A stretch of DNA of 64,000 nt from Escherichia coli (GTDB lineage Bacteria; Pseudomonadota; Gammaproteobacteria; Enterobacterales; Enterobacteriaceae): assembly GCF_003334335.1 (NCBI RefSeq), contig NZ_QOWQ01000026.1, one strand, 5' to 3'. Under the pieces are notes generated by a model. It did no database searches, had not been told where the DNA came from, and worked only from the letters and a program-made list of their open reading frames with translations. Made by a program: the position numbers and the translations under genes. Positions 36,508 to 40,393 of the stretch are shown piece after piece; the stretch's first letter is position 1; every line of letters begins with the position of its first letter.

Positions 36508-37791
36508 ATGGCTCTTAACACACCACAAATTACGCCGACAAAAAAGATAACAGTGAGGTCAATCGGCGAGGAACTGCCGCGTGGTGATTACCAACGTTGC
36601 CCGCAATGCGACATGCTGTTTAGCCTGCCCGAGATAAATTCTCATCAGAGTGCCTATTGTCCGCGCTGTCAGGCAAAAATTCGCGACGGGCGCGACTGGT
36701 CGCTAACGCGCCTGGCGGCAATGGCTTTCACCATGCTGTTGCTGATGCCGTTTGCCTGGGGCGAACCGCTGTTGCATATCTGGCTGTTAGGTATTCGTAT
36801 CGACGCCAACGTCATGCAAGGCATCTGGCAAATGACCAAACAGGGCGATACGATAACGGGGGCGATGGTCTTTTTCTGCGTTATTGGTGCCCCCCTCATT
36901 CTGGTGTCCTCCATAGCATATTTATGGTTTGGTAACCGACTGGGAATGAATTTACGTCCGGTACTGCTGATGCTTGAGCGACTTAAAGAGTGGGTAATGC
37001 TGGATATCTACCTGGTCGGCATTGGCGTTGCTTCTATAAAGGTACAGGATTATGCCCATATCCAGGCGGGTGTCGGCTTGTTCTCTTTTGTGGCGTTGGT
37101 GATTTTAACGACGGTGACGTTGTCACATCTTAATGTCGAGGAGCTGTGGGAGCGATTTTATCCGCAGCGCCCCGCTACGCGTAGGGACGAGAAACTTCGT
37201 GTCTGTCTTGGGTGCCATTTTACCGGCTATCCTGATCAGCGTGGTCGCTGCCCGCGTTGCCATATCCCGCTACGCCTGCGTCGCCGTCATAGTTTGCAAA
37301 AATGCTGGGCGGCGCTGTTAGCGTCAATCGTTTTGTTGTTACCTGCCAACCTGTTGCCTATTTCTATCATTTATCTGAACGGAGGACGGCAGGAAGATAC
37401 AATTCTTTCCGGAATTATGTCGCTGGCAAGTAGCAACATTGCGGTTGCGGGAATCGTGTTTATCGCCAGTATTCTGGTACCGTTTACTAAAGTGATCGTC
37501 ATGTTCACTTTACTGTTGAGCATTCATTTTAAATGCCAGCAAGGTTTACGCACACGCATTCTGTTACTGCGGATGGTGACCTGGATTGGTCGCTGGTCGA
37601 TGCTCGACCTGTTTGTCATATCTTTAACCATGTCGCTGATTAATCGCGATCAGATCCTCGCTTTTACTATGGGACCGGCTGCGTTTTATTTCGGCGCAGC
37701 GGTAATTTTGACTATTCTTGCTGTGGAATGGCTGGACAGCCGCTTACTTTGGGATGCACATGAGTCAGGAAACGCCCGCTTCGACGACTGA
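36508..37791 (+). CDS. letA: paraquat-inducible PqiA-like membrane protein (lipophilic envelope-spanning tunnel protein A)
   Basis: ORF track 427 aa; two Cys-pair motifs and two PqiA-like membrane halves. Confidence 0.9.
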
Positions 37792-40393
37792 AGCGCAGAT
37801 TAAAAATAAACGCCGTATCTCACCTTTCTGGCTGCTGCCGTTCATCGCGCTAATGATTGCCGGTTGGCTGATTTGGGACAGTTATCAGGACCGGGGTAAT
37901 ACCGTCACCATCGACTTTATGTCGGCGGATGGTATTGTCCCGGGCCGTACGCCTGTTCGTTATCAGGGCGTTGAAGTCGGAACAGTGCAGGATATCAGCC
38001 TCAGCGACGATCTTCGTAAGATTGAAGTCAAGGTCAGCATCAAGTCCGATATGAAAGATGCGCTGCGCGAAGAGACTCAGTTCTGGCTGGTGACGCCAAA
38101 AGCATCGTTGGCAGGTGTCTCCGGGCTGGACGCCCTCGTCGGTGGTAACTATATCGGCATGATGCCAGGTAAAGGTAAAGAGCAGGATCACTTTGTCGCA
38201 CTCGATACCCAACCGAAATATCGACTGGACAATGGCGATCTGATGATCCACCTGCAAGCCCCCGATCTCGGTTCGCTGAACAGCGGTTCATTGGTCTATT
38301 TCCGCAAGATCCCTGTGGGAAAAGTCTACGACTATGCCATCAATCCCAACAAGCAAGGCGTGGTGATTGATGTCCTGATCGAGCGGCGTTTTACCGATCT
38401 GGTGAAAAAAGGTAGCCGTTTCTGGAACGTTTCCGGCGTTGATGCCAATGTCAGTATCAGTGGCGCGAAGGTGAAACTGGAAAGTCTGGCGGCACTGGTT
38501 AACGGTGCGATTGCCTTCGATTCACCTGAAGAGTCGAAACCTGCCGAGGCGGAAGATACCTTTGGTCTGTATGAAGATCTGGCCCACAGCCAGCGTGGCG
38601 TAATAATAAAACTGGAACTGCCGAGTGGGGCAGGATTAACCGCCGACTCGACGCCATTAATGTATCAGGGACTGGAAGTCGGACAGCTAACTAAACTGGA
38701 TTTAAATCCTGGTGGTAAAGTCACTGGGGAAATGACAGTTGATCCCAGCGTCGTTACCCTGCTTCGTGAAAATACCCGCATCGAATTACGTAATCCGAAA
38801 TTATCCCTTAGCGATGCCAATCTCAGCGCCCTGCTGACTGGCAAAACCTTCGAGTTGGTACCCGGCGATGGCGAGCCACGCAAAGAGTTCGTTGTTGTGC
38901 CAGGCGAAAAAGCACTGCTGCATGAACCTGATGTTCTGACGCTGACCCTGACCGCGCCGGAAAGTTACGGTATTGATGCTGGTCAGCCGCTCATTCTTCA
39001 CGGCGTGCAGGTAGGCCAGGTTATCGATCGTAAACTCACCAGCAAAGGCGTCACCTTTACCGTCGCCATCGAGCCTCAGCATCGAGAACTGGTAAAAGGC
39101 GATAGCAAATTTGTCGTCAACAGCCGTGTCGACGTGAAGGTGGGGCTGGATGGCGTTGAGTTTCTCGGTGCCAGCGCCTCAGAATGGATTAACGGCGGGA
39201 TACGTATTCTGCCGGGCGATAAAGGCGAGATGAAAGCCAGCTATCCACTGTATGCCAATCTGGAAAAAGCGCTGGAGAACAGCCTTAGCGATTTACCCAC
39301 CACAACCGTGAGTTTGAGTGCAGAGACGCTGCCGGATGTGCAGGCAGGATCGGTAGTGCTCTACCGTAAATTTGAAGTTGGTGAAGTTATTACCGTGCGT
39401 CCGCGAGCTAACGCGTTTGATATCGATCTGCATATTAAGCCGGAGTATCGCAACCTTCTGACCAGCAATAGCGTGTTCTGGGCAGAAGGCGGGGCGAAAG
39501 TTCAGCTGAATGGTAGTGGCCTGACCGTACAGGCATCCCCGCTCTCCAGAGCATTAAAAGGGGCTATTAGCTTCGATAACCTCAGTGGTGCCAGCGCCAG
39601 TCAGCGTAAAGGCGACAAACGTATTCTGTATGCTTCCGAAACAGCGGCCCGTGCGGTTGGTGGGCAGATTACGCTTCACGCTTTCGATGCCGGAAAACTG
39701 GCGGTCGGGATGCCAATTCGCTATCTCGGTATTGATATCGGGCAAATCCAGACGCTGGATCTGATTACCGCGCGCAATGAAGTACAGGCAAAGGCGGTGC
39801 TCTATCCGGAATATGTCCAGACCTTTGCTCGCGGTGGTACGCGCTTCTCAGTGGTCACACCGCAAATTTCGGCAGCTGGCGTTGAGCATCTAGATACTAT
39901 CCTCCAGCCGTATATCAACGTCGAACCAGGCCGGGGCAATCCTCGCCGCGACTTTGAATTACAAGAGGCCACCATTACTGATTCGCGTTACCTGGATGGC
40001 TTAAGCATTATTGTTGAAGCGCCGGAAGCCGGTTCGTTAGGTATTGGTACGCCTGTGCTGTTCCGTGGTCTGGAAGTCGGTACGGTTACAGGAATGACGC
40101 TGGGGACATTGTCAGATCGCGTGATGATTGCGATGCGCATCAGTAAACGCTATCAACACCTGGTGCGTAACAATTCCGTCTTCTGGTTGGCATCGGGTTA
40201 CAGTCTGGACTTTGGTCTGACGGGCGGCGTAGTGAAAACCGGCACCTTTAACCAGTTTATCCGTGGCGGCATCGCCTTCGCCACGCCTCCGGGTACGCCA
40301 CTGGCACCGAAAGCCCAGGAAGGCAAACACTTCCTGTTGCAGGAAAGTGAACCGAAAGAGTGGCGTGAATGGGGAACTGCGCTTCCCAAATAA
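37760..40393 (+). CDS. letB: multi-MCE-domain periplasm-spanning protein (lipophilic envelope-spanning tunnel protein B)
   Basis: ORF track 37718..40393 trimmed to ATG 37760 (877 aa); repeated MCE domains; overlaps the letA 3' end by 32 nt. Confidence 0.9.

Follow-up and report, generated by a model that had tools for sequence, protein, structure and literature searches.

The closest described system is the LetA-LetB pair of Escherichia coli K-12 (YebS-YebT; b1833-b1834; PDB 9n8w/9n8x and 6v0c). In the published structures LetA is a polytopic inner-membrane protein composed of two zinc-ribbon plus PqiA modules, which docks under the LetB hexamer, and LetB is a homohexameric stack of rings that binds one LetA and whose MCE domains form a hydrophobic, periplasm-spanning tunnel for phospholipid. 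The Nature 2026 LetAB paper (PMC13017536) puts the stoichiometry of the complex at 6 LetB to 1 LetA and states that the two genes overlap by 32 bp. More than 80% of overlaps in prokaryotes are shorter than 32 nt, and this length lies outside the enriched -1, -4 and -8 classes (review literature).

The window is a 64,000-nucleotide stretch of E. coli DNA (contig NZ_QOWQ01000026.1); its segment from 36508 to 40393 is, with high confidence, the letAB (yebST) operon and comprises two coding sequences and their overlap:
36508..37791, plus strand: letA (yebS) coding sequence (open reading frame, RefSeq), starting at ATG, 427 aa, with its TGA stop at 37789-37791
37760..40393, plus strand: letB (yebT) coding sequence (RefSeq, K-12), 877 aa from ATG 37760
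37760..37791, plus strand: letA/letB overlap, 32 nt, where letB is read in the -1 frame with respect to letA; the segment covers LetA residues 418-427 and LetB residues 1-11

Both coding sequences and the overlap are annotated in the same way by RefSeq/PGAP in an E. coli genome of 100% identity, and the annotation of K-12 MG1655 has two matching coding sequences and a matching overlap. The window and K-12 share the gene order prc-proQ-msrC / letA-letB-rsmF, the lengths of the coding sequences and the 32 nt of overlap; their DNA is 98.2% identical, with 4 amino acid differences in LetA and one in LetB (S35G). This is strain-level polymorphism only, and the window is matched best, at 100%, by other strains of E. 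coli. All but one of 5426 complete E. coli genomes carry the letA-letB locus (5425), so that chance can be set aside as the source of these open reading frames: the gene pair is real and conserved.

LetA contains two PqiA modules (Pfam PF04403) at residues 66-217 (E 1e-38) and 263-418 (E 8e-43), and scores 700 bits against TIGR00155 (the PqiA/YebS family of NCBIfam; cutoff 260). Its four CxxC motifs (CPQC at 31, CPRC at 51, CLGC at 233 and CPRC at 248) place one CXXC-Xn-CXXC zinc ribbon ahead of each membrane domain, and GRWSMLDLF at residues 361-369 is an instance of the GRWSM-psi-D-psi-F motif, both as defined for the family in PMC13017536. What separates LetA from PqiA, according to the same paper, is a position immediately upstream of a LetB with 6-8 MCE domains, not of a PqiB with three. 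The gene immediately downstream encodes seven, and the score of the window protein against the PqiA equivalog NF011683 (211 bits) is below the cutoff of 562. Three further features belong to letB and its 3' flank:
37817..37879, plus strand: single N-terminal transmembrane helix of LetB, approximately residues 20-40, from hydropathy
37892..40183, plus strand: seven tandem MCE (MlaD) domains of LetB, Pfam PF02470, E 5e-19 to 1.5e-4
40401..40426, plus strand: terminator-like hairpin 3' of the letB stop and before rsmF, with an 11-pair G+C-rich stem and a poor U tract

The MCE domains occupy residues 45-137, 163-220, 280-353, 394-455, 514-589, 636-724 and 747-808 (Pfam), so that the product has the architecture of LetB, a single membrane helix at the N terminus and then seven MCE domains. 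The identities of letA and letB that the initial annotation had proposed are confirmed by RefSeq, K-12, Pfam and PDB 9n8w; its coordinates and 32-nt overlap agree with the sequence, RefSeq and the K-12 annotation, and its seven MCE domains with the seven PF02470 matches. All of this (genes, function, domains, annotated start and overlap) is already in RefSeq, EcoCyc-style annotation and the Nature 2026 paper, and is nothing new.

Of 80 species of Enterobacteriaceae, 76 have the 32-nt overlap and 4 have one of 44 nt. The top 120 word-index protein matches are all at least 77% identical, and more distant orthologues came from an exhaustive search of representatives. In three of these (L084, L086 and L089; LetA identity 37-50%) the overlaps measure 11, 38 and 56 nt. 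Lengths found among orthologues are 8, 11, 32, 38, 44 and 56 nt, with a gap of 25 nt in one (L088). The letB ATG of the three distant orthologues sits at W-x-x-(H/Y)AT|G, with the Trp codon at a constant distance from it. This pattern suggests that the letB start is held at a fixed site directly 3' of a conserved LetA motif, SRL(L/I)W, and that a poorly conserved, disordered LetA C-terminal tail runs past that start by a variable length. The genes would then overlap because the letB start is fixed just beyond SRL(L/I)W while the LetA tail reads on. In the K-12 structures, LetA residues 419-427 and LetB residues 1-13 were not resolved or were omitted as disordered (PMC13017536).

Mechanically called, the letB-frame open reading frame spans 37718..40393, begins with TTG and encodes 891 aa; the nearest upstream in-frame stop is TGA at 37709-37711, and two in-frame ATGs follow the TTG, at 37754 and 37760. 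The elements that bear on the choice are:
37750..37755, plus strand: Shine-Dalgarno-like UGGGAU, within LetA codons W415-D416 and 4-5 nt 5' of ATG 37760
37754..37756, plus strand: alternative in-frame ATG 6 nt upstream of 37760, probably unused
37718..37720, plus strand: TTG of the mechanically called frame, 42 nt upstream of 37760, probably unused

Support is strongest for ATG 37760, which all 80 of the Enterobacteriaceae species retain and which occupies the same position in the three distant orthologues. Its duplex with the anti-Shine-Dalgarno sequence (-4.0 kcal/mol) is the best of the three candidates, and it alone has a correctly spaced Shine-Dalgarno-like element; the corresponding TTGGGA is invariant in all 80 species. 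The UGG(GAU) of the LetA Trp (plus Asp) codon most probably also serves as the letB Shine-Dalgarno element. At -4 kcal/mol, that element is weak. LetB has 877 aa in PDB 9n8w and 9n8x, and chain B of 9n8w begins MSQETPAS, the window LetB corresponding to it from residue 1; hydropathy windows above 1.6 begin only at residues 20-23, and the LetB transmembrane helices are modelled inside residues 14-45 (Nature 2026, PMC13017536). In published INRI-seq data, obtained in vitro, a peak lies 12-18 nt from the annotated letB start in 5 of 5 replicates (30-69 CPM), and Table S3 of that study lists no alternative letB start (TTG 37718 lay outside the construct).

That LetB instead starts upstream, at ATG 37754 (879 aa) or TTG 37718 (891 aa), and that the database start is wrong, is very unlikely. 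Both codons are in frame, with no stop before 37760, and within E. coli ATG 37754 hardly varies, 5201 of 5425 genomes having an identical 71-nt junction; moreover, LetB residues 1-13 are absent from the cryo-EM map, so that the structures do not settle the matter. Across species, however, ATG 37754 has become ACG or ATA in 28 of 80, mostly by changes that are synonymous in letA (GAT to GAC), and TTG 37718, which has no Shine-Dalgarno element, has become TTT in 3 of 80 and is missing from the distant orthologues, which down to 37% identity go without the extension and keep the ATG at the position of 37760. Substitutions within the 14-codon extension are radical when read in the letB frame (L/Q/P, W/L/S, T/I, A/D, M/T) and synonymous in letA. 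The mechanical ORF caller thus over-extends letB by 14 codons, and the annotated start gains comparative as well as in vitro support. Two further sources were silent: in vivo Ribo-RET has no peak (values of 0) for letA or letB, probably on account of low expression, and the TRAINSPOTTER N-terminomics supplements have no entry for LetB.

The preference of the initial annotation for ATG 37760 over 37718 and 37754 is accordingly upheld by conservation, the Shine-Dalgarno element, INRI-seq, annotation and the 877-aa PDB chain. Its further step, that the overlap indicates translational coupling, is not established, and in vitro initiation, the 6:1 ratio and a refactored construct speak partly against it. 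In the obligate form of such coupling, ribosomes would end at the letA stop (37789-37791), step back some 30 nt and start again at ATG 37760, making LetB synthesis dependent on letA translation. The arrangement invites this reading, in that the genes are co-directional and overlapping, their products enter one complex, the overlap is kept in most orthologues examined, the letB Shine-Dalgarno element is weak, and backward reinitiation is documented for the coat-lysis pairs of phages fr and MS2, which couple at -38 and -50 nt (review literature). Obligate coupling is nonetheless improbable. Reinitiation falls off with length of overlap in a controlled spacing series, and has disappeared at -25 nt (review literature); the stop-start spacing is -32 nt here, and ranges from -8 to -56 nt, with one case of +25, in orthologues, so that the pair in the window is not of the closely spaced (-4, -1, -8) kind and the length of the overlap is itself not conserved. 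One-for-one reinitiation cannot yield six LetB per LetA. The refactored operon, in which letA and letB do not overlap, is functional (it serves as the working wild-type background of the functional mutational scan in PMC13017536), and the paralogous pqiA-pqiB pair has no overlap at all.

The INRI-seq data argue indirectly against strict dependence. The letB RNA of that experiment carries only 30 nt of upstream sequence, with no letA start and no letA translation, and nevertheless initiates at the annotated start in all five replicates; its signal exceeds that of letA (30-69 vs 6-8 CPM), despite the letB RNA being the rarer of the two in the input pool (59 vs 541 CPM). (These are denatured short RNAs in an in vitro PURE system, which cannot reveal what limits initiation on the native polycistronic mRNA.) A conserved structure masking the ribosome-binding site of letB was looked for and not found, folding z-scores being approximately 0 and covariation absent. 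In the fold of lowest energy UGGGAUGC pairs with codons 19-21 of letB, which vary freely, and the predicted mean unpaired probability around the site is intermediate (~0.45-0.53). Most likely, then, ribosomes would initiate letB mainly de novo, at a ribosome-binding site embedded in letA. Such initiation would make it possible to produce more LetB than LetA, as a 6:1 complex requires. Translation of letA may assist by holding the letB site unfolded, but strict termination-reinitiation coupling would not be required. The Mori 2021 supplements have no entry for the in vivo LetA:LetB synthesis rates.

A different property of the junction is the conservation of its nucleotide sequence, for which two features need to be specified:
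37708..37810, plus strand: near-invariant nucleotide block around the letB start, extending ~52 nt 5' and ~19 nt 3' of the overlap
37675..37702, plus strand: candidate RNA hairpin within letA, 8 pairs and one bulge, a terminator-like match located just 5' of the block

Synonymous entropy drops from ~1.2-1.4 bits to 0.1-0.4 in the block. The normalised entropy of letA codons 401-416, which are single-coding, is 0.25, compared with 0.70 +/- 0.08 (minimum 0.45) for 1087 other windows, and two rare Leu codons, CUU and UUA, do not vary. Synonymous constraint reaching ~50 nt 5' of the letB start extends further than a ribosome footprint normally does, and embedded de novo initiation does not account for it. 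In the hairpin, the free third-position pair (37680/37698) is UA in 17 cases, CG in 7, UG in 7, AU in 3, GU in 1 and something else in 10; this covariation score was reached by none of 500 shuffles (a test that ignores phylogeny), and folding predicts a hairpin in L084 and L086 too. The hairpin is possibly conserved, the evidence being weak to moderate because Ala and Gly codons are inherently self-complementary.

Block and hairpin together might constitute a dedicated cis-acting RNA element in letA that sets the LetB:LetA output ratio, for instance by marking a boundary of processing or stability, by acting as a ribosome standby site or by binding a regulator. The low synonymous diversity of codons 401-416, the fixed rare codons, the hairpin with its covariation and its recurrence in distant orthologues, and the need of the complex for unequal synthesis of LetA and LetB all point in this direction, but the proposal is doubtful. 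Folding energies are no better than those of shuffled sequences (z = 0.06 and 0.57), no covariation emerges from RNAalifold over the block, its U content is not unusual and, as noted, predicted accessibility is intermediate. The hairpin arms consist of Ala/Gly codons, whose pairing is nearly automatic, and the block is not conserved at the nucleotide level in orthologues of 37-44% identity. A search for Rfam families in 36300-40600 returned none at E <= 1, no promoter-like site was recognized, and the sigma-54 ChIP-seq paper does not name the locus in its main text. It is, likewise, unlikely that the last ~120 nt of letA (37675-37702 plus 37708-37759) act in cis as an RNA element controlling LetB relative to LetA beyond the ordinary constraint of a ribosome-binding site. 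Were this so, an element at the 3' end of letA would help to deliver the 6:1 subunit ratio; for the specialist, the point of interest is how overlapping genes give 1:6, and the conserved stretch 5' of the letB start could play that role. An element of this kind is compatible with de novo initiation of letB.

Several other candidate functions of the block were considered and rejected or found unsupported. TTGACT at 37708 resembles the -35 element of a sigma-70 promoter for letB inside letA, but there is no -10 element at a usable spacing and a promoter scan found nothing at this site. TGGC-N7-CCGC at 37729-37743 has the GG/GC spacing of a sigma-54 site; yebS and yebT go unnamed in the main text of the E. 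coli ChIP-seq study. A long-range helix of UUUUGACU (37706-13) with AGUCAGGA (37762-69), enclosing the start, does no better than shuffles, and is not kept in L084, L086 and L089. Dual coding of the 14-codon extension as the source of the synonymous constraint is contradicted by the radical changes in the letB frame and by the loss of the TTG in three species. The T content of 37708-37759, only at the 14th percentile, does not fit a U-rich S1/standby enhancer, and the only antisense or small open reading frame under the block is one of 26 aa on the minus strand (37765-37845). A literature search on yebT (sRNA, RNase E, transcription-start data) found nothing relevant. Finally, a programmed -1 frameshift within the overlap, giving a LetA-LetB fusion protein, could be imagined from the -1 frame of letB, the cytoplasmic location of both termini, the unexplained nucleotide conservation and a hairpin across the letA stop (37777-37795). 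It is extremely improbable: the letA frame has no X XXY YYZ slippery heptamer from 37712 to 37789, and detection and purification yield LetA and LetB as distinct proteins, at a stoichiometry of 1:6.

PqiA-PqiB-PqiC, the paralogous MCE system of E. coli, has the same order as letAB, with a PqiA-family membrane protein ahead of a multi-MCE protein, but the MCE domains of PqiB number three, against the seven of LetB, and PqiB has a lipoprotein, PqiC, as partner; a gap of 4 nt lies between pqiA and pqiB, whereas letA and letB overlap, and the window proteins fall below the equivalog cutoffs of PqiB (475 < 525) as well as PqiA. The coat-lysis pairs of phages fr and MS2 share with letAB a downstream start that lies tens of nucleotides 5' of the upstream stop and in another frame. 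In these phages translation of the lysis gene depends on termination of coat translation and on an inhibitory structure; the letB start region, in contrast, initiates alone in vitro, and a conserved inhibitory structure was not found around it. Gene pairs with -4 or -1 start-stop overlaps (ATGA, TGATG), which use termination-reinitiation, are like letAB in being co-directional and in encoding subunits of one complex, but in letAB the overlap is 32 nt long and the subunit ratio is 1:6, not 1:1.

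letA (yebS) and letB (yebT) encode the inner-membrane subunit and the MCE tunnel of a lipid transport pair. Elements of their junction, which was read directly, are as follows (start-codon variants are those of letAB junctions from 80 Enterobacteriaceae species).

36508-37791, + strand: letA ORF, 427 aa, ATG start, stop TGA at 37789-37791
37675-37702, + strand: candidate hairpin in letA, just upstream of the invariant block and followed by a U-rich stretch
roughly 37708-37810, + strand: nearly invariant block, letA codon ~401 to letB codon ~17, reaching ~52 nt upstream of the overlap
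37709-37711, + strand: upstream in-frame stop (TGA) of the letB frame
37718-40393, + strand: mechanically called letB-frame ORF, TTG start, 891 aa, in a different frame from letA
37718 (-42), + strand: candidate letB start TTG; TTG in 77 species, TTT in 3
37754 (-6), + strand: candidate letB start ATG; ATG in 52 species, ACG in 26, ATA in 2
37760, + strand: candidate letB start ATG; ATG in 80 of 80 species

Read from ATG 37760, letB is 877 aa long and overlaps letA by 32 nt. The ORF listing and the junction bear out the initial annotation of the pair (36508-40393) exactly, and RefSeq gives yebS and yebT the same coordinates (window = locus + 34899). The overlap is likewise 32 nt in K-12 MG1655 (letA 1916258..1917541, letB 1917510..1920143), from which the window differs at 69 of 3886 positions, with one amino acid change in LetB (S35G) and four in LetA. 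Of 5426 complete E. coli genomes, 5425 contain the 4.1-kb letAB stretch, several of them at 100% identity. (A search with 36400-40500 finds the locus absent from one of the 5426, and a second, plasmid-borne copy in one E. coli genome.)

RefSeq, K-12, Pfam, NCBIfam and PDB concur on the identity of the pair. Pfam recognizes two PqiA domains in LetA and, as the initial annotation had it, seven tandem MlaD/MCE domains in LetB. LetA scores well over the NCBIfam cutoff for the PqiA/YebS family; both proteins score under the PqiA and PqiB equivalog cutoffs and are therefore the Let and not the Pqi pair. LetA has two CXXC-Xn-CXXC zinc ribbons and a GRWSMLDLF motif at 361-369, and the one hydrophobic helix of LetB lies near residues 20-40. 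In the solved LetAB complex (PDB 9n8w/9n8x; six LetB and one LetA) LetB is 877 aa long with the N-terminus MSQETPAS; LetA 419-427 and LetB 1-13 are invisible in the map (PMC13017536), so that the overlap codes only for disordered tails of both proteins. The system is already known: fully annotated, structurally solved, and with its overlap in print.

Assignment of the letB start to ATG 37760 rather than 37718 or 37754 holds up on several counts. The Shine-Dalgarno-like UGGGAU at 37750-37755 (-4.0 kcal/mol), made by LetA codons W415-D416, lies at a workable distance from ATG 37760 only, and TTGGGA is unchanged in 80/80 species. The -6 ATG is lost mostly by GAT to GAC changes that are synonymous in letA. 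The substitutions found in the 14-codon extension are synonymous in letA and radical in the letB frame (L/Q/P, W/L/S, T/I, A/D, M/T), so the extension is not evolving as protein. In vitro INRI-seq, on synthetic RNA with 30 nt of upstream sequence and the first 153 nt of letB, detects in five of five replicates a peak of retapamulin-stalled ribosomes (30-69 CPM) that lies 12-18 nt from the annotated start (PMC9825163); were letB to begin at 37754, the peak would fall outside this interval. letB is also absent from the full table of non-annotated starts of that study. Start mapping, proposed as a check, thus supports 37760 in vitro, while in vivo Ribo-RET has no peak for either gene and LetB is absent from one N-terminomics supplement. 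(The ORF caller over-extends minus-strand msrC too: 35881-36432, 183 aa, against 35881-36378, 165 aa, in RefSeq. The candidate starts of rsmF, 40467-40475, are another closely placed pair, with the mechanical ORF starting at ATG 40467, 481 aa, and RefSeq at GTG 40473, 479 aa.)

When the 80 species are aligned by codon, entropy at synonymous sites drops from ~1.2-1.4 bits over letA and letB to 0.1-0.4 bits in the block, of which only 37760-37791 is dual-coded. In particular, single-coding letA codons 401-416 have a normalized entropy of 0.25, with rare Leu codons CUU and UUA fixed; across the operon's 1087 remaining windows of sixteen codons the mean is 0.70 +/- 0.08, and none is below 0.45. 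A promoter, an Rfam family, another ORF and U-richness were tested as causes and are unsupported; a stable or covarying structure has folding energies equal to those of shuffles and no RNAalifold covariation, and a translated upstream extension is opposed by the radical letB-frame changes and by TTG to TTT in 3/80 species. The block is most simply read as constraint from the embedded letB initiation region that reaches unusually far. An element dedicated to setting the LetB:LetA ratio, in the block or hairpin region, is possible but unproven.

The hairpin at 37675-37702 consists of Ala/Gly codons, which self-pair almost automatically, and could be a coding-sequence coincidence. Its two free third-position pairs are paired more often than in shuffles (37680/37698: UA 17, CG 7, UG 7, AU 3, GU 1, other 10), and hairpins are predicted at the matching place in two distant orthologues, L084 and L086, where L086 has exchanged a G-C for a C-G pair. 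The covariation score of the 37675-37702 hairpin is reached in 0 of 500 shuffles; the shuffle test ignores phylogeny, and the evidence is therefore weak to moderate.

Translational coupling, which the initial annotation read from the overlap, is not established. Phage coat-lysis pairs are coupled at -38 and -50 nt, but in a controlled spacing series coupling drops as overlap grows and is gone at -25 nt (both from a recent review), and reinitiation at 1:1 could not supply six LetB per LetA. Moreover, ribosomes initiate in vitro at the letB start region without letA translation, giving more signal there than at the letA start (30-69 against 6-8 CPM) even though letB RNA is scarcer in the pool (59 against 541 CPM; PMC9825163), and a non-overlapping refactored letAB operon is functional, serving as wild-type background of a functional mutational scan (PMC13017536). 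Folding and RNAalifold disclose no conserved structure masking the letB ribosome-binding site, whose predicted accessibility is intermediate: energies at the start are on a par with shuffled sequence (z = 0.06 and 0.57), covariation is nil, and in a 201-nt fold UGGGAUGC pairs with letB codons 19-21, which vary freely. Independent letB initiation, possibly aided by letA translation, is the better-supported, if inferred, mechanism.

Other features of the window are:

8268-8353, - strand: sroD, Rfam gathering-score match
27402-27862, - strand: cspA-type thermoregulator leader, Rfam gathering-score match
40401-40426, + strand: terminator-like hairpin between the letB stop and rsmF, 11 pairs, G+C-rich, poor U tract
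43350-43494: SraC/RyeA with antisense SdsR/RyeB sRNA pair, Rfam gathering-score match

A genomic-SELEX peak of sigma-28 RNA polymerase presumably lies near 36474 (msrC-letA intergenic), ~34 bp ahead of letA, the K-12 version offset being estimated. The peak was reported at K-12 1914836 (the authors' numbering), between yebR and yebT (Shimada et al. 2017).

The overlap measures 32 nt in 76 of the 80 Enterobacteriaceae species and 44 nt in four. (Premature stops shorten the 877-aa letB to 539 aa in Citrobacter koseri NCTC10786 and to 726 aa in C. amalonaticus AUH_CA_2023_1; either the genes are pseudogenes or the assemblies are in error.) Exhaustive search for distant LetA relatives (37-50% identity) finds the prc-proQ-letA-letB neighbourhood kept on their contigs. 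In orthologues L084, L086 and L089 the letB ATG is placed as in E. coli, two codons past the Trp of LetA SRL(L/I)W, as xAT|G spanning a His/Tyr codon and the next; the LetA tail beyond it differs in sequence and length, so that the overlaps come to 56, 38 and 11 nt. A further pair of relatives have an 8-nt overlap (L087) and a 25-nt gap (L088). The fixed feature is thus the letB start with its Trp-codon Shine-Dalgarno element, and the overlap arises secondarily, from a dispensable LetA tail that reads on beyond that start. As a lead, only the conserved nucleotide block ahead of letB is worth a bench test.

Of two more distant PqiA-family genes, one (L091) has the gene of a 538-aa PqiB-like MCE protein 7 nt downstream and the other (L090) adjoins a convergent 297-aa single-MCE protein. 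The paralogous pqiA-pqiB pair of K-12, unlike letA-letB, has a spacing of +4 nt and no overlap.
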